DNA from: Tagaea sp.
Lineage (GTDB): Bacteria > Pseudomonadota > Alphaproteobacteria > CACIAM-22H2
NCBI GenBank assembly: GCA_965228135.1
Contig: OZ245798.1
Span: 1,803,037-1,867,036 of the forward strand
Direction: 5' to 3'
DNA length: 64,000 nt
In this document: in pieces, positions 6,392 through 23,298 of the stretch
How positions within the stretch are numbered: position 1 is the stretch's first letter
Layout of the letters: every line of letters starts with the position of its first letter
Notes under the pieces: generated by a model
Database searches by the model: none
Seen by the model: only the letters and a program-made list of their open reading frames with translations
Told to the model about the DNA's origin: nothing
Program-made: the position numbers and the translations under genes

Positions 6392-6410
6392 CGAATTACC
6401 TCTTCGCTCG

Positions 6411-8839: not shown

Positions 8840-8840
8840 G

Positions 8841-9713
8841 TCAGACGCGCTCCTGCAACGCGCGGCCGAACAGACCGTTGGGCATGAAGATCAGCACCAG
8901 GATGATGACCAGGAAGGGGCTCGCTTCCTTATAGGCGGAGGAGATCCAACCCGCCGTGATCGCTTCGATCAGGCCGATCGCCAAACCACCCACGACGGCG
9001 CCCAAAGGCGAACCCAGCCCGCCGAGCATCGCGCCCGCAAAGCCCTTAAGGGCGAGCGGAATGCCGATCTCCGCATTGGTTAGCGTGATCGGCGTCACCA
9101 GAATGCCGCCCAGCGCCCCGACCGCCGCCGAAAGGCCGAAGCTCAACGACACGACGAAATTCGTGTCGATGCCCACGAGCCTTGCCGCGTCGCGATTATT
9201 GGCCGCCGCCAGCACCGCCTTGCCGATCAGCGTGCGGGTGAAGAAGACGAACAGTGCCGCCAGGATCGCAGCGGTCGAACCCATGACGACCAGGCTTTGG
9301 ATCTGAACGGTGGCGCCGGCGATGCGCAGCGGCGCGTCGCTAAAAAGCGGTGGCAGACTGTGCGACTGCTTGTCGAAGACGATCTGCGCGATCCCGCGTA
9401 CGAAGATCGACGCGCCGATCGTGATGACGATGAGGGAGACGGTCGAACTGCTCTGCGCCGGTTCGATCGCCAGTTTCTGCAGCGCCAAGCCGCAGGCGAT
9501 CGCCACGACAATGGCCGCGGCGGCGGCGGCCGGCAAAGGCAAACCCCAATAGGCGAGGAAGACCGTCCCCATGCCGCCAAGCATCACAAACTCGCCCTGC
9601 GCGAAGTTCACGACGCTGGATGCGTTGAAGATGATGATCAGGCCCAGCGCAATCAGCGCGTAGATGGCGCCGACCGTCAGGCCCGAAAAGAGAATCTGGA
9701 GGATATCGGCCAT
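8841..9713 (-). CDS. ABC transporter permease, LivH type
   Basis: Hydrophobic BPD permease; the likely start is MADILQILFSGL at 9713 (track ORF starts at 9767). Confidence 0.8.
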   Translation of the reverse strand: MADILQILFSGLTVGAIYALIALGLIIIFNASSVVNFAQGEFVMLGGMGTVFLAYWGLPLPAAAAAAIVVAIACGLALQKLAIEPAQSSSTVSLIVITIGASIFVRGIAQIVFDKQSHSLPPLFSDAPLRIAGATVQIQSLVVMGSTAAILAALFVFFTRTLIGKAVLAAANNRDAARLVGIDTNFVVSLSFGLSAAVGALGGILVTPITLTNAEIGIPLALKGFAGAMLGGLGSPLGAVVGGLAIGLIEAITAGWISSAYKEASPFLVIILVLIFMPNGLFGRALQERV

Positions 9714-9809
9714 TGTCCTGGGGGGGAGTGGGTGTCGGGAGACGGGAAGCGCGTCCGGCGCCGGCATCGCCGTCTTGCGGCGGAAATGCCGGCGCGGTCG
9801 CGGCTATGC

Positions 9810-10967
9810 TCAATCGTCGAGCAGCGCCCAGCGGCCGTTCTTCACCTGGATCATGCGGAACGACGTATCGCCCAGTCCCATGTGATCGGCCGGCGTCATC
9901 GTCACGATGCCAGTCGTCGCCACCAATCCCTTGGTCGCTTCGATCTGATCACGAATCTTTACGGGCGATGCGGATTTTCCTGCGCGTTCGATCGCCCCGA
10001 CCAGGATCGCAAAGGCGTCGCGCGCGTAACCGGCGTAGGATGACACGGGTTCGTTGTGCTTGCCTTCGTAGGCGCGCTTGAACTCGACCGCGACCACCTT
10101 CTGCGGATCGTTCGCCGGCAGCAATTCGGCGACCAGCAGCACTGATGCCGGCAGGCGAATACCTTCCGCCGCCGCACCGCTCAGCTTCAGGAAATCGTCC
10201 GAAGCAACGCCGTGCGATTGATAGAACGGCGTCTTCATGCCGAGCTGGGCGTAGCCCCGCGTGACCACCGCCGAGCTGTGGCCGAAACCCGGATTGATGA
10301 TGGCACCGACCCCCGCAGCGGCGCGGATGCGGGTCAATTGCGGAGTCATGTCGGCGTCGCTGTCCTCATAGGTCTCGTCGGCGACCACGCGCACTTTCGC
10401 CTCTTCGGCGGCGATCTTGCACTGCTGACGCATCGAAGCGCCTGTACCGCCGTTGCTGGAGATCAGCGCCACACCATCGATTCTGCGGCGGACGATATCC
10501 GCGAAGATCTTGCGGCAAGCCATCAAGTCGGTTTCAGGCGTCTTGAAGACGAATTTTTTCACCGGCTCGACGATCGTGATCGCGCTAGCGAGCGAGATCA
10601 GCGGAATCTCCGCCGATTCGAAGACCGGGATCATCGCCATCGTCGCAGGCGTCGTCGATCCAGCGATCGCAGCGACGATCTTGTCTTCTTCGACCAGACG
10701 CGTCGCGAATGTTTTGGCGCGGTTGGGATTTCCGGCGTCGTCATAGACGACCAGGCGCACGCGCTCGCCGTTGATACCGCCCTTGGCGTTCACCTCGTCG
10801 ACCAGCATGCGCAGCGTCTTGGCTTCCGGATCTCCCAGGAACGAAGCGCCCCCGGTGATCGCCAGCGACGCGCCGATCACGATTTCGGCACGCACCGCGG
10901 AAACGCCCGCCAGCAGCGTCGCACCGACCGCGAATGCACAAATTCCGCCCAAAAATCTGGATTTCAT
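9810..10967 (-). CDS. periplasmic substrate-binding protein, LivK/Leu-Ile-Val-binding family (ligand possibly aromatic)
   Basis: Signal peptide MKSRFLGGICAFAVGATLLAGVSAVRA followed by a type-I periplasmic binding fold. It is the first gene of the minus-strand operon that ends with the P450 and reductase. Confidence 0.8.
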   Translation of the reverse strand: MKSRFLGGICAFAVGATLLAGVSAVRAEIVIGASLAITGGASFLGDPEAKTLRMLVDEVNAKGGINGERVRLVVYDDAGNPNRAKTFATRLVEEDKIVAAIAGSTTPATMAMIPVFESAEIPLISLASAITIVEPVKKFVFKTPETDLMACRKIFADIVRRRIDGVALISSNGGTGASMRQQCKIAAEEAKVRVVADETYEDSDADMTPQLTRIRAAAGVGAIINPGFGHSSAVVTRGYAQLGMKTPFYQSHGVASDDFLKLSGAAAEGIRLPASVLLVAELLPANDPQKVVAVEFKRAYEGKHNEPVSSYAGYARDAFAILVGAIERAGKSASPVKIRDQIEATKGLVATTGIVTMTPADHMGLGDTSFRMIQVKNGRWALLDD

Positions 10968-10989
10968 GATGCTTCCTCCCTTGGCGACG

Positions 10990-11060
10990 ATGCGCCGTGA
11001 TTGACTTTTGTCGAGCCGTTATTTACGTATTGTAAAAATCGTTTACGACGTTTTCATACA
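10990..11060. promoter_or_regulatory. divergent promoter region with TTTACG-type direct and inverted repeats (candidate IclR/LuxR operator)
   Basis: AT-rich cgttatttacgtattgtaaaaatcgtttacgacgttttcatacatcac between the transporter operon and the VanA-like gene. Confidence 0.3.
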
Positions 11061-11118
11061 TCACGATCTCGGGCACGGTCAAGCGCCGGAAGCGAACGAA
11101 AGAACGAAAGGGAAGGAA

Positions 11119-12186
11119 ATGCCGTATTTGCAGAACGCTTGGTACGTCGCGTTGTGGGGCGACGATCTGCCGCCCGGCGCGATCCAATCGCGCCGCATTC
11201 TCGATGTGCCGTTGGCGATCTATCGCGGTCATGACGGACGTTTGTCCGCGCTGACCAACGCATGCCCGCATCGCTTCGCGCCGCTGTCGGAAGGCAAGGT
11301 GCTGGCCGACGGCACGCTGCAATGCCCCTATCACGGCCTGCAATTCGATGGCACGGGCCAATGCGTGCGCAATCCGCACGGTGCGGGCCTGATCCCGCGC
11401 GCAGCGCAGGTGCGCGCCTTCACGGTGCATGAAAAGGATGGCATCGTGTGGATATGGATGGGTGCGCAAACGCCCGACATCGCCAAGATCCCCGCCTATC
11501 CGATGCTCGGCGAGCCCGGCCGCCCGCGCTCGAAGAAGGATTGGCTGCGCATCAATTCGAGCTATGAGCTGATCATCGAGAATCTTCTCGATCTCAGCCA
11601 TGTCAGCTTTCTGCATGACGGCATTCTGGGGAATTCGGAAACCGTCACCGCCAAGATCAAGGTCCATCACGAAGGCGACGTAATCCGCGTCGATCGCGAA
11701 ATGACCGACGTGACGAGCCCCGGCCTGTTCGACCTGCTTTACCGGCGCGACGCCGGCAAGGTCGATATGTGGACCAACATCACCTGGACGGCACCCGCGA
11801 CTTTGGTCAACGACGCGGGCGTAGTCGACGTGGGCAAGCCGAAATCCGACGGAACCGGCATTTTCGGCCATCACTTCCTGACGCCCGAGACCGCGCACAC
11901 GACGCTCTATCATTTCTGCGCCGTAATGCAGAATCCCCTGCCCCACGCGGCGGACGACGACGTGCGCCGCCAATTGACGGATCTGCGCCGCAAGGCCTTC
12001 GACGAACAGGACAAGATGATCATCGACGCGCAGCAGCGCGCCCTTCTCGATCCCGCGATCGATACGCAAAAGCCGGTGATGCTGGAGATCGACGCAGGCC
12101 CGATGCGCTTTCGCCGCCATCTTGAAAAACTGATCGCGGATGAAGCCGCGCGCGCGCGCCTGGCCGACCAGGCCGTCGGCGGATGA
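11119..12186 (+). CDS. Rieske non-haem iron oxygenase, VanA-like (class IA, phthalate family; O-demethylase or hydroxylase oxygenase component)
   Basis: Rieske CPHRFAPLSEG...CPYHGLQFD; the start is ATG at 11119 after AAGGGAAGGAA (the track ORF at 11008 is over-extended). Confidence 0.85.
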   Translation: MPYLQNAWYVALWGDDLPPGAIQSRRILDVPLAIYRGHDGRLSALTNACPHRFAPLSEGKVLADGTLQCPYHGLQFDGTGQCVRNPHGAGLIPRAAQVRAFTVHEKDGIVWIWMGAQTPDIAKIPAYPMLGEPGRPRSKKDWLRINSSYELIIENLLDLSHVSFLHDGILGNSETVTAKIKVHHEGDVIRVDREMTDVTSPGLFDLLYRRDAGKVDMWTNITWTAPATLVNDAGVVDVGKPKSDGTGIFGHHFLTPETAHTTLYHFCAVMQNPLPHAADDDVRRQLTDLRRKAFDEQDKMIIDAQQRALLDPAIDTQKPVMLEIDAGPMRFRRHLEKLIADEAARARLADQAVGG

Positions 12187-12575
12187 GCGGCAACGTTACC
12201 CGGCTGCGGCGCGCGGACGCCGGCGAGATTCGTCCGATCGGTACGCGCGACCTCGCGGCGCGCGCGGGCCGGCCGGACGCGGACGAATCCGCGATCGTCG
12301 CCGACGCATGGCGTCTCTTGCGCGGACAGGTGCCGCTCCGGATCGCCGAACAATTCCCGCGCGGCGGATTCCTCGATGCGACACACGAGTTGTGCGAGGC
12401 GGTTTTCGGCGGGGCGCTATGCGCCTTGACGCTGGAATATACCTCGCGCGGCGGCCCCTATCGCGCCACGCTGCGTCTCGCGGCGCCCGACCGGATCGCA
12501 ACGGGCGAAAGCGCCCGCTCCGCCGCGATGGCGCTGATCGTCGCCTTGTTGGACGGCAATCACAACCGCCCGTAA
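12183..12575 (+). CDS. hypothetical 130-aa protein translationally coupled to the VanA-like gene
   Basis: The ATG overlaps the oxygenase stop (ATGA at 12183-12186) and ends 23 bp before the iclR start. There is no recognisable motif, and it could be spurious. Confidence 0.3.
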   Translation: MSGNVTRLRRADAGEIRPIGTRDLAARAGRPDADESAIVADAWRLLRGQVPLRIAEQFPRGGFLDATHELCEAVFGGALCALTLEYTSRGGPYRATLRLAAPDRIATGESARSAAMALIVALLDGNHNRP

Positions 12576-12597
12576 CGTCGGGCCGAAGGCAAGTCAC

Positions 12598-13353
12598 GTG
12601 TCGAAGGAAGATAAAGACATCGCGGGCATCCAGTCGATCGAAGTCGGCGCCGCGATCCTGTTTGCGCTCGCCCAGATCGGCCGCCGCGCCACGCTCAACG
12701 AAATCGCCAGCGCCACCGGCATGGTGCCGGCCAAGCTGCATCGCTATCTGGCCAGCATGATGAAATCCGGGCTCGTGGTGCAGCCGAAGAAGGCGGGCGT
12801 CTACGCGCTGGGGCCCGGCGCCATCCGCATCGGCCTCGCCGCCCTTCAGCAGAACGATTTCTGCACCATCGCGACCCAGCATTTGGGCGAGATTCGCGAC
12901 GCGCTCGACGTCACCTGCTTCGGCGCGGTGCTCGGCAAGCAAGGTCCGACGATTTTCGCCCAGGAAGTGGCCGCCAACAACGTGGCGGTCTTCGTGCGTG
13001 TGGGTTCGGTTCTGCCGATGGAAAATTCCTCAACTGGCTGGGCTTTCGGCGCGTTCATGAGCGACAGCCAATACCGCGCCGTCTGCGGCATCGAGCGCGC
13101 CCGCGCGCCGGAAGCTACGCTCAAACGGCACCGGGAAGTGAAAAAGCATGGTTGCGCGCGCATTACGGACGAATATGTGCGGGGCATCAGCGCGATCTCC
13201 TATCCGGTATTCGGGCTGAACAACGCGATCGAGGGCGTGATCACGGCGCTGGGCGCGACCGGCAATTTCGATAACGCGGTCGACGGCCTGATTTCGAAGA
13301 AATTGCGCGAGGTCGCCAGCCAAATCGGCCGATCGCTGGGCGCGAACGTCTAA
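12598..13353 (+). CDS. IclR-family transcriptional regulator
   Basis: N-terminal wHTH (RATLNEIASATGMVPAKLHRYLASMMKSGLV) plus a C-terminal IclR effector domain. IclR regulators commonly control aromatic catabolic operons. Confidence 0.85.
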   Translation: MSKEDKDIAGIQSIEVGAAILFALAQIGRRATLNEIASATGMVPAKLHRYLASMMKSGLVVQPKKAGVYALGPGAIRIGLAALQQNDFCTIATQHLGEIRDALDVTCFGAVLGKQGPTIFAQEVAANNVAVFVRVGSVLPMENSSTGWAFGAFMSDSQYRAVCGIERARAPEATLKRHREVKKHGCARITDEYVRGISAISYPVFGLNNAIEGVITALGATGNFDNAVDGLISKKLREVASQIGRSLGANV

Positions 13354-13418
13354 AGCGATTTTGGTTCGATTTGCCACTATCCGGCGGCGATGCAGCGTGC
13401 GGATGCTCCAACGAAAAA

Positions 13419-13448
13419 GGGCCCGGACATGCGGTCCAGGCCCTTATT
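13419..13448 (+). terminator. intrinsic terminator-like hairpin after iclR
   Basis: GGGCCCGGAC-atgcg-GTCCAGGCCC followed by TTATT, with an A-run upstream. Confidence 0.5.
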
Positions 13449-13461
13449 CACTTCAAACCAA

Positions 13462-13531
13462 TGATGGGCGATGTAGGGCTCGAACCGACGACAAGCTGAT
13501 TAAGAGTCAGCGGGTAGGTCGAACTAATCCC
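13462..13531 (-). pseudogene. tRNA-Lys(CTT)-like fragment; the 3' half is intact and the 5' half is degenerate
   Basis: On the minus strand, an anticodon arm GCTGA-CTCTTAA-TCAGC (anticodon CTT), a T-arm GTCGG-TTCGAGC-CCTAC and an acceptor 3' strand ATCGCCC-A. The upstream GGGATTAG... cannot form a D-arm or pair with the acceptor. It sits exactly at the left GC-content break. Confidence 0.4.
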
Positions 13532-13958
13532 AAAGCTCAAGCGCGTCCCTCAACGAGGACGATATTGCTTATGCTTTGACCGAAAAGTCATTTCGAAGGA
13601 CTCTCAGTCCTACGTGATGATCGCTAAATCAATTGGTAAACGGCATTAAGTGGCATGCCCCAGGATTGTTGGATACCAATATAGGTATCTGGCTTGATGG
13701 GGTCGATGGCCCCTGCATCTAGCCTTACGGTGCCGTAGGCTAGTGGCCTTTAACCAGCCAGGGGAGACAGTCCACCCCATCAGGCCAGTAGTGACGTTAC
13801 CTTTGCCCGATAACGATTACGGCCTCCTTCAGGCATTAGAAGTTCTGACCGTTGAGCAACTATTGCGAAGCTTGCCACTAAAGCTTTCGCAGTATCCCTT
13901 CTCCCAAGGGCATTCAGAGCCGATAAACAGCGACTTCGAACAAATCTGCGCGAGCTAG

Positions 13959-14204
13959 TCACTTACCTGAGGCAGGCTTGGCACGACGAAAGCGCTGGGC
14001 AGGTGTCAAAAGGCCGTGCGAGGTCGATCTGAGCGCGACAGCAAGCTTGTCGAGCATATCCAATGACGCTGCGTAACGCTCGGTCTCCAGAAGCGAAACA
14101 TAGCTGCGGTCAATACCCGCAGCCATCGCCAGGGCTTCCTGGGACATCGCCCGCTCCCGCCGGATACGGCGCAAATTGATTGCCAAAACCCGTCTCGACC
14201 GCAT
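13959..14204 (-). CDS. XRE-family (Cro/CI-type) HTH transcriptional regulator
   Basis: LRRIRRERAMSQEALAMAAGIDRSYVSLLETERYAASLDMLDKLAVAL. A 60-aa ORF (13780..13962) is coupled downstream by a GTGA overlap. Confidence 0.75.
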   Translation of the reverse strand: MRSRRVLAINLRRIRRERAMSQEALAMAAGIDRSYVSLLETERYAASLDMLDKLAVALRSTSHGLLTPAQRFRRAKPASGK

Positions 14205-14313
14205 TCCCGGAGGGGACCAAGTTGCGGCCGAACGATCCACAGAGTATATTCAACAAATTATACTCATAGCCTGTACCCATCAGCAGGCAGGAATCCGCCT
14301 CGCGGCAACCAAG

Positions 14314-14961
14314 CGAATGGCTATCGAGGAGGAGCAATTCAAAGTGCTCGGACGACGGGACGCCCCCGCAGCCCCTGATATACGAAAGCGCCGTCGCTGG
14401 CCGTTTTGGCTCGCTGTCGCGGTCATCACCTGGCTAACGACCGAGAGCGTTTATGACCATCTTCGCCAAGCGCGTCTTGCCAAAGAAGATTCAGTAGAGG
14501 GCCGCGCATTTCGCGCGGAACAGGAGATAGCGGCAGCGGCCAAGGAACAAGCGGCGGCCAGCCGTTACAATGCAGAAAAAGCACGTGCCGCATTCCGAGC
14601 TCTTCCAGAAAAAGATCGAGTTACTCAGGCTGCCATGGATGAGGCCTTCCGCAATCCTGGAAAGAAGCCAAGACTCGCAGATGGTTACTTCATTACCATC
14701 GGCGACTACGGGATCGGTACCTCGGGATGGTATGGAAATATCTGGGTAGCCCGCGATGAGACTACCAAGCCATCGACTTGGTGCGAGTGGGCTGAAAGCT
14801 GGTTTTCATGGGTATGGCGCTGTACCAGCGTCCGCATATGCAGGGACTTCTGGCGCGGTTTTCGTTCTGGCCTTTTATTCATTGTCGTCGATCGCAAACA
14901 GCCGCCCATTCGAGCCTGCCGCGATCCTATTACCGGACTATGGAACAATTATAAGTTCTAG
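14314..14961 (+). CDS. hypothetical membrane-anchored protein (island cargo)
   Basis: Divergent from the XRE gene; it has one TM (WPFWLAVAVITWLTT), a charged A/E/K/R-rich middle and a Trp-rich C-terminus. The start is taken at MAIEEEQ; the track ORF begins at 14176. Confidence 0.4.
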   Translation, partial: RMAIEEEQFKVLGRRDAPAAPDIRKRRRWPFWLAVAVITWLTTESVYDHLRQARLAKEDSVEGRAFRAEQEIAAAAKEQAAASRYNAEKARAAFRALPEKDRVTQAAMDEAFRNPGKKPRLADGYFITIGDYGIGTSGWYGNIWVARDETTKPSTWCEWAESWFSWVWRCTSVRICRDFWRGFRSGLLFIVVDRKQPPIRACRDPITGLWNNYKF

Positions 14962-15042
14962 AAAAATAATTCCATCATCCTCTAATATAAGTCCAATATC
15001 ACCAATCACTGCCCAATCGGCAATGTTTCATAGGCGGCTAAA

Positions 15043-15477
15043 ATGGATCGAAGCGACGCAGCCCGGGAGCTCATGGCGATTTTTCTTGAAACGAAGAGTG
15101 TCCCGACGCCCGATCAACTGATCGCGCGAATTGAGAAAGTTGGAGCTCTTCAAAATCGAGCTCATCCCCTACTTCGCCCCATTACTCGTCAAGAAGCTGT
15201 CGAACTTGCGCAAGGCTCAATGCCGCAAGGGCTGGCCTTACATCGTTTCCGGCGCGCAGAGACGATGTGCGTTTGGATATCTGCCCATCGACGACTATAT
15301 CCTGACGCCTCGACTGACTGGCTCGAAGAGCTTTTCACTATTTTCGAATGGTCGCGATCGGGCTGCGAGGAAGGCGGCGAACTCGGATGCGACTGGATTT
15401 TCGCCGTGGAACACTTTGAAGGTCGCCCGAAGCTTATTCGAGATCCGATCGAAATTTCTCGCTCGAATTTCTTTTGA
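15043..15477 (+). CDS. hypothetical protein (island cargo)
   Basis: 144-aa ORF in a low-GC stretch with no recognisable motif. Confidence 0.35.
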   Translation: MDRSDAARELMAIFLETKSVPTPDQLIARIEKVGALQNRAHPLLRPITRQEAVELAQGSMPQGLALHRFRRAETMCVWISAHRRLYPDASTDWLEELFTIFEWSRSGCEEGGELGCDWIFAVEHFEGRPKLIRDPIEISRSNFF

Positions 15478-15783
15478 CGACTCTATGTCTCAGAACATCT
15501 CCCAATCCGCATTCACTCAACAACGTGATCGGCAGACGCAAGTGCCCACTCAACGTTCTCCCATCCGTTTCCTTCCAGAAAAGGCAGGCTTCCAATGGAA
15601 CCCGATGAAAACGAACAAAAGGAAGTCGGCGCGACCGAAACATCGCTACCGCCCTTATCACCAGATGAGCGGCGTTATATGCCCATGATGGGTTTTTTTC
15701 ATTGCTTCAAGCCCGTCGTTTGGCTGCGAAACTTGGAAGGCCACGGGCCGACGCCGCCTAAGGCAGACAAAGCCGATACCTAA

Positions 15784-16152
15784 CGCGCTTTGAATGCCGG
15801 CAGATCGGCTTTGGCGCTCATTGCCAAGTTTGGCTCAGCTATCGCACTCTCGCACTGGGCCGGGCTGACCCGCTTCGCCGGCGACGGGCGTATCGAGATC
15901 GACAACAACGCGGTCGAACGAGCGATCCGGCCGCAGGCGCTGACCCACAAGAACGCGCTGTTCGCGGGCAGCGACGGCGGCGCGCAACATTGGGCGTGCC
16001 TCGCCTCGCTGATCGAGACCGCAAAGCTCAACGCGCTCGATCCGCTCGCCTAACTGACCGCCACTCTCGAAGCCCTCGCCGCCGGACATCCCATCAACCG
16101 CGCCGGCAAACTCCTCCCTTGGCGATGGGCACACACGCCGTCAACCGTGTGA
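15784..16152 (+). pseudogene. IS66-family transposase (TnpC) C-terminal remnant, 5'-truncated and with an in-frame nonsense codon
   Basis: GDGRIEIDNNAVERAIRPQALTHKNALFAGSDGGAQHWACLASLIETAKLNALDPLA-TAA-LTATLEALAAGHPINRAGKLLPWRW is the diagnostic IS66 C-terminus. The TAA at 16051-16053 replaces a conserved Tyr codon. Confidence 0.8.
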
Positions 16153-16262
16153 GCCAGGCGATGCATACGATGGAACGGCTCGACAAAAACTGCGCGTCTA
16201 GCATCCGGGTAAAGGCAAACGGCTAAGCCGACGGCATGGACAAAAAACCGACTTCGCGGTTG

Positions 16263-17222
16263 CTAAGGAGTCTCGTGATTTCTCAAGAGCGTGCTTAGCG
16301 ATTTGAAGTCCATCCCATACCGCCCCAAATCCAGGATGAATTCGATCAAGTTCTGAGGCGTGTAGCCAAGTGCTCGATGCTTCTCACTCGATATACTGCG
16401 AATCAGCACTATGAGCATTTCAAAATCGATCTTGTTGCGCCCCGCCTCGATCAGAATTACTCCCAGCTTAGGAACAGTGTATCCCAGCTCGCGAATTTCT
16501 TCAGTGAAGGCCCCGTTGACCTCAACTCCGTCAGCGATCATTTCGGACGTGAATGACTTCTCGGTAAGCTTCCGCAAATTCGCACGCCGCTTTCGAATCT
16601 CTGCGGCATAATTCTCGGTCCATCCACTGTACCGCACCGCATGATTCTGATCACGCATTGCCCGCTCACGATAGACCTTTGCACGGTACCCTGGCGATTG
16701 GGCTAGACCTTGCGGAGCGTCAGGGAGAAGCGAGTTACTCGCTGTGAGATCCGGCGCAGCATCCCCGGCCACCACCTTATCTCCGCCGGACCGCAATTTT
16801 GAATCGGTATCAGATCTTGCGATCATCTCTGGCGCCGCTTGGCACGAGGCAATGCCTGCGCCTGAGGCAATAGCATCGGGTTTGATTACTGCAGGATCCG
16901 GCGTAGCTTCACCGACAACCACCCGATCTTCGCTGGGCGGGAGGTTCGCAGTGGCCCCAGGTTTTGCAGTCGCCTCTCGAGAGGTTTGGTTCAGGTCGAT
17001 GTCCACCTCCGTAGACTGGGCACGAGATTTGATCGCGATGGTCAACGCCTTATGCGTTTCGGCGCGGCGTCGGGCGTCCTCGGCATCTCGCTGCGCCTGC
17101 ATCCCCTTTCGCCCGAAATGCGACGACGTATTGGGCGGCGACGCGGCAACTATGTGAGTTGCTCCAGTATCGGCGGGTGTTGCCGTTACAGACGATTGAT
17201 CCAATTTGGTTTTCTCGGACAT
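16263..17222 (-). CDS. hypothetical protein upstream of, and divergent from, the relaxase gene (possible mobilisation accessory protein)
   Basis: 319 aa with an A/P/S/T-rich low-complexity N-terminal half and a structured C-terminal third; no identifiable domain. Confidence 0.4.
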   Translation of the reverse strand: MSEKTKLDQSSVTATPADTGATHIVAASPPNTSSHFGRKGMQAQRDAEDARRRAETHKALTIAIKSRAQSTEVDIDLNQTSREATAKPGATANLPPSEDRVVVGEATPDPAVIKPDAIASGAGIASCQAAPEMIARSDTDSKLRSGGDKVVAGDAAPDLTASNSLLPDAPQGLAQSPGYRAKVYRERAMRDQNHAVRYSGWTENYAAEIRKRRANLRKLTEKSFTSEMIADGVEVNGAFTEEIRELGYTVPKLGVILIEAGRNKIDFEMLIVLIRSISSEKHRALGYTPQNLIEFILDLGRYGMDFKSLSTLLRNHETP

Positions 17223-17288
17223 GAAGCATGCTCCTCAGTTTGCGTGCGCGCTTTCGAGTGCGCCCTAACAAACCGATTATCCACGACC

Positions 17289-17424
17289 GCTCTTAAAAAC
17301 CGCTGCGCGGCGACGTGCCTCCGCCCCTAGATGCCCAGCCATTTTCGACACAGTCAGCAAGGCTTCGTCGAAAACGACGCTCTGCCAAGAATCCGTCTGT
17401 TCGGGCGTAGGCGTTTTTAAGACG
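17289..17424. repeat. inverted-repeat pair CTCTTAAAAACCGC ... GCGTTTTTAAGAC (site A), arms about 105 bp apart
   Basis: Left arm 17289-17304 and right arm 17410-17424. The same motif recurs upstream of the recombinase gene at 21296-21346. Confidence 0.6.
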
Positions 17425-17450
17425 ACTGCCCCTACACTTGCCCTTGTCCG

Positions 17451-17481
17451 CACCGGGCGCTCCCGATGGGAGCGCCCGGTG
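17451..17481. repeat. perfect 14-bp inverted repeat with a 3-nt spacer
   Basis: CACCGGGCGCTCCC-gat-GGGAGCGCCCGGTG in the relaxase upstream region. Confidence 0.8.
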
Positions 17482-17521
17482 CCAAGAGATTACGAGCGGC
17501 CGCAACAGCGGCCGCCCTATT

Positions 17522-17555
17522 CCCTAGTCGGGGACGGCCACGTCCCCGACTAGGG
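17522..17555. repeat. perfect 15-bp inverted repeat with a 4-nt spacer (candidate oriT hairpin or terminator)
   Basis: CCCTAGTCGGGGACG-gcca-CGTCCCCGACTAGGG, about 50 bp before the annotated relaxase start codon. Confidence 0.8.
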
Positions 17556-17612
17556 CGCAATTACGCATTCGCTGCTTCAGGGCAACACGAATGCAGGCTG
17601 TTGGAGGTCTAA

Positions 17613-20600
17613 ATGGCGCGCGACGAACTCGAAGACGACCTTCTACGAACTCGCGCTGGACGCCTCGACGAGTCCGCCGAGCTTTCAAATATAAGGCGAC
17701 TATTAAGCACGCCGCGCAGCCGAAGCGTCTATCTGCCTTCCTTCCGGCATCAACCGCGGCAAACTCGCCCATTCCGGGAGCTCGAGCACCGGTTTCCCAC
17801 AGCGTACCGCGTCGCCGCCACCAACGGCGCCGTCGTATCGACGTTTCATTTCCAGCAAACGTTCCTGTCGAGACGCCCGCTGCCGTCGTTACCGCGATCA
17901 GTGCAGACGGGTAAGCGGACAATAATTTGGCCGACTCGCGGCCAAGCAAAGTTCGTGAGATCTTCTGTCGCCGGTGCGCGGTATCACCGCGATCAACGCG
18001 TCTGGACAGTCCCAAGTGACCATCGATTTCTGAGAACGGCCCTAGGCAAGGCTCTCTCCTCGCCGCTCGCGAGGGCTACAGCAACTTTAAGACGCACGAG
18101 AACCAGCCGCGATGGGATAAAGCGCCAAGCAATCTGGTTTGCGCACTATCTCACAAGAACCGGCCCCCTCGCCGATCGTGCCGACGAACTCGTTCACGAT
18201 AGGGCGGGCCCGATCGTCGAAGGCACAATCGGCAAATCCGCTGCCGAGCTATCGAGCTTTTGGAGTGCTGCAGACGCGGCGGAACCTCGGGTCGATGGCA
18301 GGATTCAAGAGCGTCTCATTATTGAGATTCCTCACTGGCTGCCGCCCGAGGAGATGCGAAAAGCCCTTCAGCGGTTCGGCGCCGAACTGACCGCGCGTGG
18401 CGTGCCCTGGGTCGGTGCTGTGCACAGGCCCGACCCCCATGGGGATCCACGTAATTATCACGTTCATATCGTTCTCGGAACACGGGGGCTAATCGGATGG
18501 GAGATGCGCGCCGTTGACAACGATCCAGGCACCCTTCGCCGCGAACCGATCTTCGCCGATAAGAAAGATCGCGCAATGCAAGGGGAGAAGTGGATCTCAC
18601 ACTTGCGCAAGATCTACGCTGAAATCGTCAATCAAATCTCGATCGAATGGTCGCAGCGCGAAGGAACATTGGTGCCGCGCATTTTCCACGCCGGCAGCAA
18701 TGCCGAACTCGGCATCGAGGCTATACCATCCCGGCATCGAGGCCCTCGGCAAAGCGCGATCGATCGACGTATCGTCGCGCGCGGCGATGAACCTCGCCAC
18801 GTTCCAATTTACGAAGTCCAAGATGAACCCCGCATGGCGCAGATTCTGCGTGGCTTCAATGCCGATGAGGCGGCTTTTCTCGCGCTCTGCGACCGCATAG
18901 AACGCCTCGTCGTCGACGCAGATGCGACTGAATCCATTAGAAGCAGCCGCGCATCGCTGATCACAGCCGCCGACACAACTGCAGCGGCGATTGAGCTGTG
19001 CGAAGAGAAAATCGAAGCGGTCTTGGTCGAATTTCAGGTGGATCGTGACGATGAAAGCCCGATCACCGATCATGATCGAATGTCATCCGACAGCATCCGC
19101 GAACTCGTCGATGCGGTCCGTGTAACCGTTTCTCGTTCCCACGATATCGAAAAGGAACTGATCGCGGTGCTCGCGCATAGCGAGACCATTCGTGACATTT
19201 CGCCGATCACCGAAAGCGCGGCCGCAGAGACAAAATCAGCGAAAGAATTGGAGCAAGCGGAAGCGACGATTGATCACCTGCCTGCCATAAATAAGTCGGT
19301 CATTCATCCGATCGAAGAACAGCACCTTTATGCCAATCCTTCTTCTGGTGAGCGTCCTGAAACTGAACGGTCTGAGCCATCGCACCACGTGCTGGTTACG
19401 TCGCCGCCCGAGCAGCCACAAAGTATCATCGCCGTTAAAGATACTCTTACACGGAGGCTCCAAGACCATCATAGAGCTATTATGCTCATCAAAGAACGAG
19501 GCTGGCGTCACGGGGCTACGGCGACCCGGCACGCCGAAGCTCGAGAAGCTCAGTTCGAGGCATTCAAAAGACGCCTCGCCGCGGAGGAAGCGGCCGAACG
19601 CTGTGAACGTCTCGTCAAATCAATCTCTGAAAGTTCATTCGAGAGTATCGGGCCAAATGACGCGTCACCACACGGCGCGAGCCACCACAACAATCAGTGC
19701 GACTTTGAACAACTCTTAAAAGAATTGGAATTAGCTGATCATCGTATATCGGAAACGCAGCAGGCGCTCGAACATTGGGAAGATATCGAGCGGAAGCTAC
19801 AGGACGTCCCCTTCATCGACGAACGTTTGCATGACCCAAAAAACTTGGTACCGCGGATACTCGAAGAATCTGACCCAGACTGGGTCATCGCAGAAATTCA
19901 AAGACAATTGAAAAAGTGCCGCTGGGTTCCGCGACACCGTGGTCAAAGAATTGTGAAGCCGATGCTTCGCGATGCCGACATCACTCTCGGCGACGTGGTT
20001 GAAGCACGAGTCCGTTACTCGCAAGAGAATGGTTGGACGATTGAATTTCCGCGCTTCTCCAGCGAGAGCGCGCGCCGTGACGCTACGGATCAACAGTGCC
20101 TTTGGATGGCGTTGATTACTCAGATGTTCATGACCACCACGCAAAGTGTCGGTAGCAAAGAGATTGCCGGTATTCTCAAGTGTTATGGCTTCACAAAAAT
20201 CGAGCCCGATAAGAACGGCATCATTGAGATTCGTAGATCTGACGGCTTGCTGCGCGTCGCACGTGATGGTCGCTTTGCAAGCGTCTACGGGTCCAATGTG
20301 GACCTGCATGCGGCGTTCGACGCGTTTGCCCACGCACGCCATGACAGTAGCAGCGACATTGCATTACAGAAAATCCTTGAAAGCAAGAAAGAGCCTCCGC
20401 TCGTTTTTTATCCTAACGATGCCGATCGCAAAGTCGATCTGATTAAGATCGCTAACGATATTCTTCACTTACATGAACTCCAGCCAATCGATCGTCAGCG
20501 CGTTCAGCACGTCGGTCATGCGTTGAAGAAGCACGAGAAGGCGCTAGAGACCTTTCATCCGACATTGAAGCCGGCCGAGAAGCAAGTCGCAGTAGATGAC

Positions 20601-21074
20601 TCGAGTTCGCGGCCTCCATTAATAGAGGCCAAGAATCAGACCGAAGCGGATTTGGAACACGCCCGAGAGCCAAGGCGCCATCTCGCGCGTCAAGAAGATG
20701 ACAGCGGGATATTTGGCCGCCTGACGCGTGGCATCGTGCAATGGTGGCGCGATACGACTGAAGTCCAGGGAGGCGAATCTCGGTCCACAATGAAGCCGTC
20801 AAAGCGCTCGCCTATGAGTTTTGATGCGCGGGCTTTCGAGCATCATGTATCGCGAAATGCGTCTTCGACGAACGCGGCATCCAGCGCGACGCGGATCAAA
20901 CAGGTAGATACGACGCCCGTCACCCAAGCCACGGGGCCAACAATCGCAGCGCGCCCGGCGACGCCTCCGCGGTCGCCAAACATTGGAAACGCCGCAGGCA
21001 GCGGCGGCAGCAGCGTTCACGACGTTATCCAGTCGGTGCGGTCGCGCGGTCGCGACCGTGATCGCGAACGATAA
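17613..21074 (+). CDS. MobA/MobL-family (TraA-like, MOBQ-type) conjugative relaxase with an ~800-aa C-terminal extension of unknown function
   Basis: The 3-His motif VHRPDPHGDPRNYHVHIVL, FW...IIEIPHWLPPEE, a HYLTRTG block and a candidate catalytic Tyr in SSVAGARYHRD are collinear with Ti-plasmid TraA. The first ~96 codons of the track ORF look non-coding; a GTG at 17901 (SVQTGKRTIIW) is the probable start. No Walker A or helicase motif follows. Confidence 0.8.
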   Translation: MARDELEDDLLRTRAGRLDESAELSNIRRLLSTPRSRSVYLPSFRHQPRQTRPFRELEHRFPTAYRVAATNGAVVSTFHFQQTFLSRRPLPSLPRSVQTGKRTIIWPTRGQAKFVRSSVAGARYHRDQRVWTVPSDHRFLRTALGKALSSPLARATATLRRTRTSRDGIKRQAIWFAHYLTRTGPLADRADELVHDRAGPIVEGTIGKSAAELSSFWSAADAAEPRVDGRIQERLIIEIPHWLPPEEMRKALQRFGAELTARGVPWVGAVHRPDPHGDPRNYHVHIVLGTRGLIGWEMRAVDNDPGTLRREPIFADKKDRAMQGEKWISHLRKIYAEIVNQISIEWSQREGTLVPRIFHAGSNAELGIEAIPSRHRGPRQSAIDRRIVARGDEPRHVPIYEVQDEPRMAQILRGFNADEAAFLALCDRIERLVVDADATESIRSSRASLITAADTTAAAIELCEEKIEAVLVEFQVDRDDESPITDHDRMSSDSIRELVDAVRVTVSRSHDIEKELIAVLAHSETIRDISPITESAAAETKSAKELEQAEATIDHLPAINKSVIHPIEEQHLYANPSSGERPETERSEPSHHVLVTSPPEQPQSIIAVKDTLTRRLQDHHRAIMLIKERGWRHGATATRHAEAREAQFEAFKRRLAAEEAAERCERLVKSISESSFESIGPNDASPHGASHHNNQCDFEQLLKELELADHRISETQQALEHWEDIERKLQDVPFIDERLHDPKNLVPRILEESDPDWVIAEIQRQLKKCRWVPRHRGQRIVKPMLRDADITLGDVVEARVRYSQENGWTIEFPRFSSESARRDATDQQCLWMALITQMFMTTTQSVGSKEIAGILKCYGFTKIEPDKNGIIEIRRSDGLLRVARDGRFASVYGSNVDLHAAFDAFAHARHDSSSDIALQKILESKKEPPLVFYPNDADRKVDLIKIANDILHLHELQPIDRQRVQHVGHALKKHEKALETFHPTLKPAEKQVAVDDSSSRPPLIEAKNQTEADLEHAREPRRHLARQEDDSGIFGRLTRGIVQWWRDTTEVQGGESRSTMKPSKRSPMSFDARAFEHHVSRNASSTNAASSATRIKQVDTTPVTQATGPTIAARPATPPRSPNIGNAAGSGGSSVHDVIQSVRSRGRDRDRER

Positions 21075-21295
21075 AGAGCCCCTCACTGACCATGGCCGAC
21101 CTAGCAAGCTACGGGGCGAAGCAATTCGCTGGGGAGATCTACCAAGCAGCTCGGTCAATGCGCGATGAGAGCCAAGCTTTGGATAGCCTCGCGCCCGACG
21201 CGGAGCACGGAGGCAAGACAGCCGCCACGACACCGCCCAAGACGGCTCGACGGATATCCATCTAAGTTATTGTAAATAATATACTATTTAGATTT

Positions 21296-21346
21296 CTCTT
21301 AAAACCGCTCGAAAGAGCCAAGCCGCGACGCGGCCGTTTTTAAGAC
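21296..21346. repeat. inverted repeat CTCTTAAAACCGCT-(22 bp)-GGCCGTTTTTAAGAC (site B) after an AT-rich stretch; candidate recombinase/att or oriT-like site
   Basis: Same arms as site A at 17289/17410. Preceded by ctaagttattgtaaataatatactatttagattt, about 240 bp upstream of the recombinase start. Confidence 0.55.
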
Positions 21347-21581
21347 CCCAGCTTGACAATGTCCGCATGGATAGGACGAGCAAATCCAGCGGCCGGGGCG
21401 GCATCTACGCCCCTGAGCCGGCGCCCAGCGAGGGCGCCGGCGGCCGATCAGATTCGTCCTCGACCCTCCATGCCCAAGCGAACGAACTTCTACGTACCCT
21501 TGCACGTCTGCTTGTGCACGACAGCGAATTGCAGCAGCCTCAAGCGCCGATGGATAAGACCTCAGATCAGCCGAAGGACGA

Positions 21582-23243
21582 ATGCAAATGATCAGGGCTG
21601 CGATCTACGCACGCTATTCCAGCGACTTGCAGCGCGAATCCTCGATCGACGATCAGGTCAGAATTTGCCGGGAGCGGATCGAACGCGACGGCGGCGCCGT
21701 TACGGAAACCTACGCCGACGCAGCGATCAGTGGATCGCGTGCAGCAAACCGCCCTTCACTTCAACGACTGGTAAGCGACGCTCGCCTTCGTCGGTTCACT
21801 CACGTCTATATGGAGGCGCTGGACCGACTGAGTCGCGACCAGGAAGACGTTGCCGGACTGTTCAAGCGGTTACGTCATGCGGACGTGACCGTCATCACGT
21901 TGAGCGAGGGCGAAATCAGCGAACTGCACGTCGGGCTAAAGGGCACGATGAACGCCCTCTACCTAAAAGACCTTGCTGACAAGGTACGACGCGGCCAGCG
22001 CGGCCGTGTGGCCCAACAACGAGCGGCAGGAGGACTCGGATACGGATACGATGTCGTTCGGAACATCGACAGCGATGGCGAGATCGATCGTGGCGTCCGC
22101 GCGGTCAACGAGACCGAGGCAGGCGTGATCCGGCGTATTTTTGGCGAGTATGTGGCTGGTAGATCACCCCGCACCATCGCACGAAACTTGAATGCAGATG
22201 GCGTTCCTGCGCCGCGCGGGGGCGCCTGGAATGCGTCAACAATAAATGGGCATCCCGTGCGCCTGCACGGTATCCTGACAAATCCCTTATTCAATGGCGT
22301 GATGATCTACAACCGTGTCGGTTATCGCAGGGATCCAGAAACGGGAAAGCGTCAACTCCGCTCGGTACCATCGGACCAATGGGTCCATGTTGAGATGCCG
22401 CATTTACGTATCGTCGACCCTGATACTTGGAACAAAGCACAATCGATTCGAGGCCAACTCGGTCAGACAAAGCGCCTAAACCATACTCATAGGCCCAAGC
22501 ACCTGCTGTCGGGGCTCATACGTTGCGGCATTTGTGGCGGAGCATACACGGTGGTCGCCTCAGGCCGACTTGGCTGTGTTGCACGCCGCGAAAAAGGGAC
22601 ATGCACCAACGCGCGGTCGGTAAAAACCGAGGAACTAACCACACGCGTGCTATCGGGAATCAAACAGCGCCTTCTGTCTCCTGCGATGTTCGCCGAATTT
22701 ATGGAAGAATTTCAGGCGACGCAGTCCGCCCGCGATAAGGCCGAGATCGACAACATGGCCGCACTCCGTCGAGAAGAGCGGGAACTCAATCAGCGAATCG
22801 AACGTTACGTGACCGCTATTGGGGATGGAACAGACAGCCCTGCAGTTCGGAAAGCCCTAATCGAGGCAGAGAATCGGATCGCCGCGATTCGCGCCGAAAT
22901 GTGCAAATCCAAACCGCCGTCGGCCCCCGAACTGCATCCGGCGTTACCTGAGCTATACCGTCGGCGCGTCGAGCAGCTTGAACACGCGTTCGCCAATGAC
23001 CCGACAAACAGAGCGCGAGCTGCCCAGATCATCCGGTCCCTCGTGGAGCAGATTCGGGTATTTCCCCAGGACGCGCGCGGTGCTGTCGAAATTGAGGTCG
23101 CAGGCGCCATCGCCCAGATACTGGCGTTGGCACAACAAAAAGACGTCGAAGATCAAATGGATGGAATGATGGTCTCGATGGTGCCCGGGGCCGGAATCGA
23201 ACCAGCGACACTGCGATTTTCAATCGCATGCTCTACCAACTGA
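21582..23243 (+). CDS. large serine recombinase (resolvase/invertase N-terminal domain, recombinase domain, zinc ribbon, coiled-coil)
   Basis: AAIYARYSSDLQ (catalytic Ser), LDRLSRD, and CGICGGAY...C..C zinc ribbon. The last ~22 codons read through the tRNA-Phe gene on the opposite strand. Confidence 0.9.
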   Translation: MQMIRAAIYARYSSDLQRESSIDDQVRICRERIERDGGAVTETYADAAISGSRAANRPSLQRLVSDARLRRFTHVYMEALDRLSRDQEDVAGLFKRLRHADVTVITLSEGEISELHVGLKGTMNALYLKDLADKVRRGQRGRVAQQRAAGGLGYGYDVVRNIDSDGEIDRGVRAVNETEAGVIRRIFGEYVAGRSPRTIARNLNADGVPAPRGGAWNASTINGHPVRLHGILTNPLFNGVMIYNRVGYRRDPETGKRQLRSVPSDQWVHVEMPHLRIVDPDTWNKAQSIRGQLGQTKRLNHTHRPKHLLSGLIRCGICGGAYTVVASGRLGCVARREKGTCTNARSVKTEELTTRVLSGIKQRLLSPAMFAEFMEEFQATQSARDKAEIDNMAALRREERELNQRIERYVTAIGDGTDSPAVRKALIEAENRIAAIRAEMCKSKPPSAPELHPALPELYRRRVEQLEHAFANDPTNRARAAQIIRSLVEQIRVFPQDARGAVEIEVAGAIAQILALAQQKDVEDQMDGMMVSMVPGAGIEPATLRFSIACSTN

Positions 23244-23254
23244 GCTACCCGGGC
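23179..23254 (-). tRNA. tRNA-Phe (anticodon GAA)
   Basis: Minus strand reads GCCCGGGTAGCTCAGTTGGTAGAGCATGCGATTGAAAATCGCAGTGTCGCTGGTTCGATTCCGGCCCCGGGCACCA. This is a canonical 76-nt cloverleaf, near-identical to E. coli tRNA-Phe, with CCA encoded. Confidence 0.95.
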
Positions 23255-23298
23255 ACCGGGCTCGTGGGAGGCGTGTATAGGGCCTGCCCGGAAACCTG

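Follow-up and report, generated by a model that had tools for sequence, protein, structure and literature searches.

Positions 13462-23178 of a 64,000-nt stretch of a Tagaea sp. genome (contig OZ245798.1; the whole stretch is called the window below) probably, with a probability of about 0.78, constitute a complete integrative and mobilizable element (IME). It would belong to a family found in Tagaea-like Rhodospirillales, target tRNA-Phe by means of a large serine recombinase (LSR) and be transferred by a MOBQ-type relaxase with the machinery of a helper element. The features by which an IME is recognized were all found: a recombinase of its own bounded by attachment (att) sites, a relaxase of its own with a candidate origin of transfer (oriT), and no set of type IV secretion system (T4SS) genes. 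The att sites were defined by comparison with an empty site in a related genome (L002; related loci are numbered L001 and so on) and with a sister element (L103). It differs from the integrase system of phiPam-6 in that one putative arm of attP is heterologous and resembles tRNA-Lys. An original prediction, made from the letters of the window, had placed an integrative mobilizable element at tRNA-Phe, and the recombinase, both junctions, the MOBQ-type relaxase, the oriT candidate and the polymorphism of the site bear it out. The comparisons below refine this picture to an apparently complete element that ends at 13462 and 23178, is inserted at the CCA end of the tRNA, has a putative tRNA-Lys-like mimic as one attP arm and carries an LSR open reading frame (ORF) extending 65 nt into the tRNA.

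The island is 9,717 bp long and has a GC content of 56.6%, compared with 0.642 in the left flank and 0.650 in the right flank, as expected from the low-GC island first proposed. Along the profile, GC is 0.51-0.60 over ~13.4-23.2 kb and 0.64-0.69 on either side, and it recovers at the tRNA. The limits proposed before, 13455-23257, captured the island but included tRNA-Phe(GAA) (23179-23254, minus strand), which is itself host DNA and lies outside the element. This tRNA is intact (ARAGORN and Rfam, 70.7 bits) and is the sole tRNA of the window. By profile search, a TfoX gene adjoins it on the right, where the flank consists of housekeeping genes (hisD and others), and an IclR regulator (12598-13353) stands in the left host flank, which is a catabolic and transport cluster. 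Both flanks are 87-90% identical to metagenome-assembled genomes of the genus Tagaea, order Rhodospirillales.

The LSR gene (21588-23243, plus strand; alternative start at 21582) encodes 551 amino acids with Resolvase (PF00239), Recombinase (PF07508) and Zn_ribbon_recom (PF13408) domains, all above the Pfam cutoffs. The protein also matched a PHROG integrase (E 4.5e-94) and, in PDB, the catalytic domain of TP901-1 integrase, and it contains the motif YARYSSDLQ. Its ratio of nonsynonymous to synonymous substitution rates (dN/dS) was 0.10 against L001. The last 65 nt of the ORF overlap tRNA-Phe on the opposite strand, and the last 21 residues (VPGAGIEPATLRFSIACSTN) are encoded by the antisense strand of the tRNA. 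Immediately upstream is orf74 (21367-21591, plus strand, 74 aa), whose stop codon overlaps the LSR start codon (ATGA). Its frame is kept in L001 and L020, and L107 has an annotated 74-aa gene. No family match was found for orf74, and it is unlike the ORF upstream of the phage LSR in L100; its position makes it a candidate directionality factor or regulator.

The tRNA-Phe of the window is identical to that of the empty site, and the element joins it at the CCA end. In tRNA sense, this junction (attL) reads ...CCCCGGGCACCA|TCGAGACC..., or in a shorter form ...GGGCACCA|TCGAGACC with the junction at 23179/23178, and it is identical in the window, L103, L039, L106 and L108. A direct repeat of the tRNA-Phe 3' end was searched for at the left boundary and was not found. 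What stands there (attR; 13462-13512, minus strand) is a 50-nt 3' fragment resembling tRNA-Lys(CTT), from the anticodon stem to ...CCCATCA, which Rfam detected as a 5'-truncated tRNA match (model positions 25-71, anticodon CUU, 21.1 bits). The tRNA-sense attR is ...CATCGCCCATCA|TTGGTTTGAAG..., and the element boundary lies at 13462/13461 to within a few nt. The distal end of L103 shows the same conserved block followed by a perfect Lys-like fragment, GCTGACTCTTAATCAGCGGGTCGTAGGTTCGAGCCCTACATCGCCCACCA, ending in CCA; homology between window and L103 ends where this fragment ends, and another host gene comes next in L103. The same 45-mer was found as a tRNA-Lys fragment in two viral contigs, and the tRNA-Lys identity of the fragment is therefore confirmed. 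From these comparisons, we read the Lys-like fragment as an attP arm that mimics a tRNA 3' end. Two earlier ideas were given up: that attR had been deleted and the element immobilized, which was dropped once L103 showed the fragment to be a terminal arm, and that the fragment was a relic of a replaced integration cassette, which is no longer needed for the window. The latter idea may still hold for L001, in which a decayed Lys-like arm has a Phe-like arm on its outer side.

The 155-nt non-coding block beside this arm (13511-13665), with three short hairpins, is 79-86% identical in L001 and L103 and partly conserved in L106. It had no Rfam match, and a consensus fold was abandoned, with only one compensatory pair among three sequences. 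Just beyond the Lys-like fragment, on the host side, comes TTTGAAGTGAAT and then a hairpin (13417-13445, minus strand) with 12 pairs and a T-run on the minus strand, which a terminator scan ranked as the strongest intrinsic-terminator-like site of the region. In L103, a homologous hairpin and TTTCGTTGG follow the element, and the host motif TTTGAA(C)GT(C)GA(A)T is common to the window flank, the empty site L002, L103 and L106. Because these counterparts lie downstream of tRNA-Phe in L002 and beyond the element in L103 and L106, we take TTTGAAGTGAAT and the hairpin to be the original trailer and terminator of tRNA-Phe, now 9.7 kb away from it.

The unlike ends could also mean that the island is a chimera of two elements, one at tRNA-Phe and one at tRNA-Lys, whose ends derive from different integration events. 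Such an origin would account for a right end at tRNA-Phe together with a left end at a tRNA-Lys-type fragment without a tRNA-Phe repeat. It would also fit a left flank without synteny to the surroundings of tRNA-Phe in L001 or L002, and the trailer TTGGTTTGAAG, which resembles that after the tRNA-Lys fragment in viral contig L105. However, the layout with a Phe-proximal and a Lys-like distal end, together with a conserved 190-nt distal block, recurs in L103 and, decayed, in L001, each time beside a different host gene. Furthermore, the motif and terminator after the Lys-like arm match the sequence downstream of tRNA-Phe in the empty L002, and also L103 and L106, and the tRNA-Met-targeting relatives L022 and L046 likewise hold 50-nt tRNA 3' fragments beside the LSR gene. 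A chimera is therefore considered very improbable, and the Lys-like fragment is treated below as the distal arm of a single element. In L105 itself (3335-3400), the identical tRNA-Lys(CTT) 3' 45-mer is accompanied neither by a full tRNA nor by a serine recombinase. The sequence after it, TTGGTTTCAAGG, is similar to the TTGGTTTGAAG behind the window's Lys-like arm (13441-13461), and this likeness leaves up to ~20 nt of uncertainty in the left boundary.

Common bases of attL and attR are confined to CA(T) in the window and to CACCATCG in L103, the P and B arms differing otherwise. The Lys-like arm agrees with tRNA-Phe in its last 5 nt in L103 (CACCA) and in its last 2 nt in the window (CA; the arm ends in CATCA). 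Such limited identity is compatible with exchange at a 2-bp core, and the dinucleotide CA was present in every junction examined. Because the P arm (Lys type) and the B arm (Phe) are unlike each other as far as CACCA, the crossover, as far as the aligned junctions indicate, must lie in the terminal (C)CA of the tRNA or at the base after it. The attP-like forms of the tRNA-Met-type relatives and of L100 had pointed to tRNA positions 65-66, the centre of a palindrome, as the crossover. This was rejected because the distal arms of the window and L103 are Lys-type through positions 65-66, which puts the exchange 3' of them.

Related genomes show that the site is polymorphic. The empty tRNA-Phe site that the original prediction expected among relatives is present in L002, where homology ends exactly at the CCA of the identical tRNA-Phe, no LSR is found and unrelated genes of normal GC come next; the same gene order and GC profile did not recur in distant relatives. 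The same tRNA-Phe holds divergent sister elements in L001, L103, L106 and L108/L109. For example, L001 has a 6.5-kb island after the tRNA, whose recombinase shows 69% and whose relaxase shows 31% identity, and more sister elements were collected through the relaxase and recombinase cluster, namely L103 (7.8 kb), L106 and L107-L111. Between the window and L001, synonymous divergence (dS) was 2.57 for the LSR and 0.44 for the adjacent host gene TfoX. The far higher value of the LSR indicates that the occupants of the site were acquired independently and not inherited with the flank. This divergence and the sporadic occupation of the site provide indirect evidence of excision and helper-dependent transfer.

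The relaxase gene (17613-21074, plus strand) encodes 1153 amino acids. Its Pfam MobA_MobL match (residues 208-386) scored 36.9 bits (cutoff 26.7); the relaxase domain spans approximately residues 140-400, and the C-terminal ~750 residues hold no known domain. Both the 3-His motif HRPDPHGDPRNYHVH (HxDx..HxH type) and the Tyr motif FAHYLTR are visible in the translation. NCBIfam matches of the N-terminal domain stayed below the equivalog cutoffs (TraA_Ti 48.2 bits, cutoff 590; MobQ 44.2, cutoff 200), and the subfamily is small: 1.8 billion representatives yielded 34 clusters at E<1e-30. On these grounds the protein appears to represent a distant MOBQ subfamily. Homologous relaxases adjoin an LSR in L001, L020, L103, L106 and L108 and at the P0002 locus. 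The Pfam matches also upheld the LSR, the relaxase and an XRE regulator (described below) at the loci first proposed for them.

A candidate oriT (17450-17596, minus strand) is located 50 nt upstream of the relaxase gene. It comprises two inverted repeats with 15-bp stems (17450-17482 and 17522-17555), a 7-bp inverted repeat (17566-17596) and a MOBQ nick core, TAATTGCG/CCCT, at 17552-17563 (minus strand), directly preceded by the inverted repeat GCATTCG..CGAATGC. The nick site TAATTGCGCCCT agrees with the consensus TAAGTGCGCCCT at 11 of 12 positions, and the core also fits the published MOBQ nick consensus NWACCNNTAAGTGCGCCCTYNN (PMC3832669). It occurs only once in the window, where 0.03 occurrences are expected by chance. 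In L103 the nick core is invariant, and both 15-bp hairpins are kept through several compensatory changes.

On the other side of the oriT candidate and divergent from the relaxase gene is p319 (16263-17222, minus strand, 319 aa), which had been counted among three unknown cargo proteins. No match was found for it in Pfam, NCBIfam, PADLOC, PHROGs or PDB, nor was a MobC signature seen, and a single-sequence AlphaFold (AF2) model with a predicted local distance difference test (pLDDT) score of 51 was too poor for a fold search. However, a 273-aa protein in the corresponding position of L103 is 39% identical to it (E 7e-48); the two are conserved towards the N- and C-termini, and their low-complexity middle varies. 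Equivalents are also found in L106 and L108, and an 84%-identical homolog in L101. Its dN/dS was 0.39 compared with ~1 in shifted frames. These facts identify p319 as a conserved backbone gene beside oriT and not cargo; by its position, that of MobC, it may be an accessory protein of the relaxosome. Profile searches of the three proteins thus yielded no family for any of them, while the homology of p319 to the L103 backbone protein came to light, and of the supposed cargo only the products of 14314-14961 and 15043-15477 are still orphans.

All ORFs within 13462-23178 could be assigned, leaving no space for T4SS or coupling protein (T4CP) genes, and no coupling protein or mating-pore gene was found among them, in line with what had been predicted. 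Mobilization would accordingly call for a helper. Capsid, terminase, portal, replication and lysis genes were likewise absent from the island, where PHROGs matched only the integrase and the XRE regulator. This bears on a further explanation, that the island is the remnant of a prophage or phage satellite whose relaxase-like gene has no role in transfer. Close relatives of the LSR do occur in phage-like strings of genes (L100 and the P0007 locus), and the only characterized relative, phiPam-6, is a phage. Given the lack of phage genes in the island and the conservation of relaxase and oriT across the sister elements, a phage origin of this kind is scarcely credible, and the IME reading is retained. 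When the island was compared with plasmids by megablast, only the tRNA was matched.

For an IME of this design, the following course of events can be envisaged. The LSR would recombine attP, which overlaps the 3' end of its own gene, with attB, the 3' end of tRNA-Phe(GAA). Integration would leave the tRNA intact, part it from its terminator and place the LSR gene convergent with and overlapping the tRNA, while the far attP arm, the 50-nt mimic of a tRNA-Lys(CTT)-type 3' end, would become the distal junction attR. In the excised circle the LSR ORF would read in frame into the Lys-like arm and end in the predicted tail ...MMVSMMGDVGLEPTTS instead of ...MVSMVPGAGIEPATLRFSIACSTN. The predicted circle junction, attP, is ...GGAATGATGGTCTCGA|TGATGGGCGATGTAGGGCTCGAACC... 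(on the plus strand of the window ...AAATGGATGGAATGATGGTCTCGA|TGATGGGCGATGTAGGGCTCGAACCGACG...), and the predicted repaired attB is ...TTCACTTCAAACCAA|TGGTGCCCGGGGCCGG... (plus strand ...CTTATTCACTTCAAACCAA|TGGTGCCCGGGGCCGGAATCGAACC...). Excision probably requires a directionality factor, for which the translationally coupled orf74 is a candidate. The relaxase, perhaps together with p319, would then nick oriT just upstream of the relaxase gene, and the nicked strand would leave through the coupling protein and T4SS of a co-resident conjugative element.

Several observations weigh against an element that still moves. Excision, a circular form and transfer are predictions from the sequence, and the crossover position likewise comes from sequence comparison. 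The larger ORFs that were sampled in the rest of the window included no coupling protein or helper T4SS gene, and the distal host flanks differ in every genome, so that no exact empty-site partner was available for the source genome. Five of the 50 positions in the P arm of the window deviate from the perfect L103 copy, among them the presumed exchange point, where TCA stands in place of CCA. An insertion sequence (IS) fragment of the IS66 type sits inside the element. In addition, L106 (3480-3720) lacks ~125 nt including the Lys-like arm, and L108 (1340-2100) and L109 carry an IS3-type orfA remnant at the distal end. These decayed distal ends imply that members of the family often become fixed.

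The island might then be a former IME whose genes are intact and whose excision or transfer has been lost, through drift of attR or for want of a helper or directionality factor. Besides the TCA end, the window attR has a T-stem pair broken relative to L103, and a long residence in the lineage would suit contigs L101 and L102, whose cargo is 89-91% identical. Such fixation would also be in keeping with the losses and IS remnants in the sisters and with the IS66 fragment. Nevertheless, LSR, relaxase, orf74 and p319 have kept their full length and evolve under purifying selection (dN/dS 0.10-0.39), and the oriT core and hairpins are conserved. The 5 differences in 50 nt equal the general divergence of the two elements (86-90% identity) and reveal no extra decay of the arm. 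A serine integrase needs a match only at the central dinucleotide, and CA is present in all junctions. Fixation is therefore regarded as unlikely, and the element is presumed to be active at present.

The overlap of LSR and tRNA recurs across the recombinase family. Among the 120 closest LSR homologs, 91 have the C-terminus G[ILFV]EP[PAT]T, which is the antisense translation of a T-arm, and LSR genes overlap tRNA-Phe or tRNA-Met at more than 25 loci. At the loci for which DNA was available, the overlap is with tRNA-Phe in L001, L013, L014, L039, L103, L106 and L108, and with tRNA-Met at approximately 20 loci, including L015/L016 (Sphingobium cloacae; LSR homologs 47% identical to the window protein), the Haematobacter plasmid pOT1-2 and some 17 loci from metagenomes, of which several follow rRNA operons. 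The overlap is systematic and not accidental. In non-integrated forms, the LSR gene is followed by no more of the tRNA than its final 13-21 nt, or ~50 nt, and then by non-tRNA sequence. The phage-like contig L100 is such a form of the Phe type, and the tRNA-Met-targeting L022 and L046 have 50-nt tRNA 3' fragments beside the LSR gene. The LSR of the window belongs to this alphaproteobacterial clade, whose targets are tRNA-Phe and tRNA-Met. A wider proposal is made tentatively, as one that may well not hold. The clade would be large, essentially undescribed and dedicated to tRNAs, with an attP that overlaps the integrase stop region and holds a mimic of a tRNA 3' half, heterologous in the present case (Lys type for a Phe target). 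Its enzymes would read generic tRNA features and the CCA, and thereby be retargetable. As integration parts the tRNA from its terminator, transcription from a strong tRNA promoter would continue antisense into the integrase gene and make integrase expression dependent on the integration state.

In L013 (170-2957), the LSR gene that overlaps tRNA-Phe (1296-2957) begins 2 nt after the end of a gene for a tyrosine integrase (170-1294), so two types of integrase stand in tandem at one tRNA. In L018 (4549-13743; Haematobacter massiliensis plasmid pOT1-2), the LSR overlaps tRNA-Met behind a plasmid-borne rRNA operon. Upstream of it are DUF6088/AbiEii genes, SIR2, ATPase and 3'-5' exonuclease genes and GNAT/DUF1778 genes, a cargo that resembles defence and toxin-antitoxin systems. 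A Paracoccus chromid hit (H27) was dropped from the empty-site comparison, as its LSR has no adjacent tRNA. Rhizobium phage RR1-A and Microcystis phages (36-39% identity) were set aside as too distant to inform. The 36%-identical integrase of RR1-A (L017:2980-3140) ends in ...VVAGERFEQSPQ; the sequence that encodes this tail, TGGTAGCGGGAGAGCG..., resembles the acceptor end of a tRNA read in antisense, and a tRNA-mimic attP may therefore extend to more distant phage integrases.

Serine recombinases at tRNA genes are unusual, as had been remarked in the original prediction. In a 2020 survey, t(m)RNA genes hosted 14 of 297 serine-integrase islands, a use that, by the survey's account, 'has not been reported previously' and still requires proof by experiment (PMC7192596), yet phiPam-6 is on record. 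This phage of Paracoccus aminophilus (vB_PamS_Pami6) is mitomycin-inducible, has a serine recombinase and targets tRNA-Met (PMC3925955, PMC6536676). It is flanked by the 17-bp repeat CCCTCCTCCGCTACCAT (PMC3925955), which corresponds to the last 16 nt of the L015 tRNA-Met plus T. The repeat thus has the same terminus as the tRNA-Met that homologs of the window LSR overlap in L015 and L016, and membership of phiPam-6 in the family rests on this shared target sequence, not on integrase sequence. In both cases an LSR is found at a tRNA 3' end, with an exchange region that includes the CCA end, as proposed for the window. However, phiPam-6 is a 40-kb tailed phage at tRNA-Met and the window holds a mobilizable island at tRNA-Phe. 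In addition, the attP arm of phiPam-6 copies its own target through the 17-bp repeat, whereas the arm in the window is of tRNA-Lys type for a tRNA-Phe target and is not identical to the 3' end of that target.

Most known IMEs with a serine recombinase come from Firmicutes and are inserted in protein-coding genes (PMC5704250). The best-studied of them, Tn4451/Tn4453 of Clostridium with the recombinase TnpX, are likewise small, combine an LSR with their own mobilization protein and oriT, lack a mating pore and exchange at a 2-bp core (PMC5704250). They differ from the present element in host phylum, in low target specificity or insertion into protein-coding genes, in relaxase family and in having neither a tRNA target nor a tRNA mimic in attP. 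The relaxase shares the N-domain Tyr and 3-His motifs with the MOBQ systems of RSF1010/R1162 and Ti TraA, and its oriT candidate shares with them the nick region (TAATTGCG/CCCT against consensus TAAGTGCGCCCT), an inverted repeat just 5' of the nick and a location between divergent mob genes (PMC3832669). Unlike those systems, the relaxase is extended by 140 aa at the N-terminus, and its 750-aa C-terminal region lacks helicase and primase domains. ICEMlSymR7A and other tyrosine-integrase islands of Alphaproteobacteria also use the tRNA-Phe 3' end and keep the tRNA functional (PMC8627217), but ICEMlSymR7A relies on the tyrosine recombinase IntS and a long identical core, is self-transmissible and measures hundreds of kb. 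Five IMEs with serine integrases were listed in a survey of Mesorhizobium (PMC8627217).

The most interesting by-product is the overlap of LSR gene and target tRNA across the family. Serine integrases are prized in genome engineering, but the sites they use in nature are for the most part idiosyncratic and lie within protein-coding genes. If a clade is directed at the 3' ends of tRNA-Phe and tRNA-Met, which are universally conserved, it would provide ready landing sites across Alphaproteobacteria and would settle the point left open by the 2020 survey, the experimental proof that serine integrases use tRNA genes. The heterologous mimic, if true, would mean that the enzyme can be retargeted between tRNA genes. 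The tRNA-antisense tail (...G[ILF]EP[PAT]T...) is also a simple annotation marker, the protein alone indicating that such an integrase is in the integrated state. For the host, the element would be a small vehicle with an exchangeable cassette, in which sisters carry NERD, AAA_13, SIR2 or AbiE-like genes.

In the window, this cassette consists of three genes. The first encodes an XRE-family helix-turn-helix regulator (13959-14240, minus strand; Pfam HTH_3, E 2.6e-11; PADLOC 'control protein' models, E 1.4e-11), which probably starts at 14204 and is conserved in L102. The second, p215 (14314-14961, plus strand), is predicted to have an N-terminal membrane helix, a coiled coil and a Cys/Trp-rich C-terminus. 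No match was found in Pfam, NCBIfam, PADLOC, PHROGs or PDB, and a single homolog (94% identity) was found among 5.8 billion proteins. Its dN/dS was 0.50, compared with ~1-1.6 in shifted frames, from few substitutions, and a single-sequence AF2 model (pLDDT 47) was too poor for a fold search. The third, p144 (15043-15477, plus strand), had no family or PDB match in the same databases and is 60% identical to a 146-aa protein of L108. There the order is an XRE gene, a gene for a 443-aa NERD-domain protein in the slot of p215 and then the p144 homolog, and other sisters and more distant relatives have AAA_13, SIR2, AbiEii-like or toxin-antitoxin genes at equivalent positions. The XRE gene, p215 and p144 thus form an exchangeable accessory cassette. 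The earlier guess of a defence or exclusion function is neither supported nor refuted by the matches of p215 and p144 themselves. The NERD protein in the p215 slot is the only hint from the sister elements at tRNA-Phe, and together with these genes in relatives it makes a defence-type role of the cargo plausible.

The decayed IS66 that had been noted is present, reduced to a 260-nt fragment (15790-16053, plus strand) with the last ~50 residues of the transposase and the start of an IS66_C element (Pfam; DDE_Tnp_IS66 profile positions 235-283 of 284, E 3e-16). Its GC content of 0.655 is unlike the rest of the island. It is not a functional IS, as a complete TnpA/TnpB/TnpC set and terminal inverted repeats are lacking. 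In the Logan contig L101 (1182-1620), the 84%-identical p319 homolog is followed by 40 nt and then by a PrpD_C-like host gene in place of the IS66 fragment and cargo, this copy being either truncated or otherwise arranged.

A sharp homology breakpoint lies at position 21324. On the right side, the integration cassette keeps 86-90% identity with L001, L020 and L103, whereas on the left side the identity of the relaxases drops to 31-77%. This difference indicates that modules have been shuffled, and L020 pairs a 96%-identical integrase with a 33%-identical relaxase. The 10-mer GTTTTTAAGA has three copies in the window, where 0 are expected, all of them in the island (17291-17300, minus strand; 17413-17422, plus strand; 21336-21345, plus strand), and they bracket the oriT region and precede the orf74-integrase operon. 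A binding site for a regulator was considered and rejected, the 10-mer being more simply the T-tail of small terminator-like hairpins. This role fits the plus-strand copies at 17413 and 21336, while the minus-strand copy at 17291 is absent from the terminator scan.

Beyond the left end of the island, the window (4055-13353) carries a P450-reductase fusion, a Liv-type ABC transporter and the IclR regulator. In the relatives L001, L002, L103, L106 and L108, the distal flanks hold PrpD, GntR/ferredoxin reductase or aldolase/Rieske dioxygenase genes instead. The region downstream of tRNA-Phe is itself hypervariable, and older catabolic islands may be present there.

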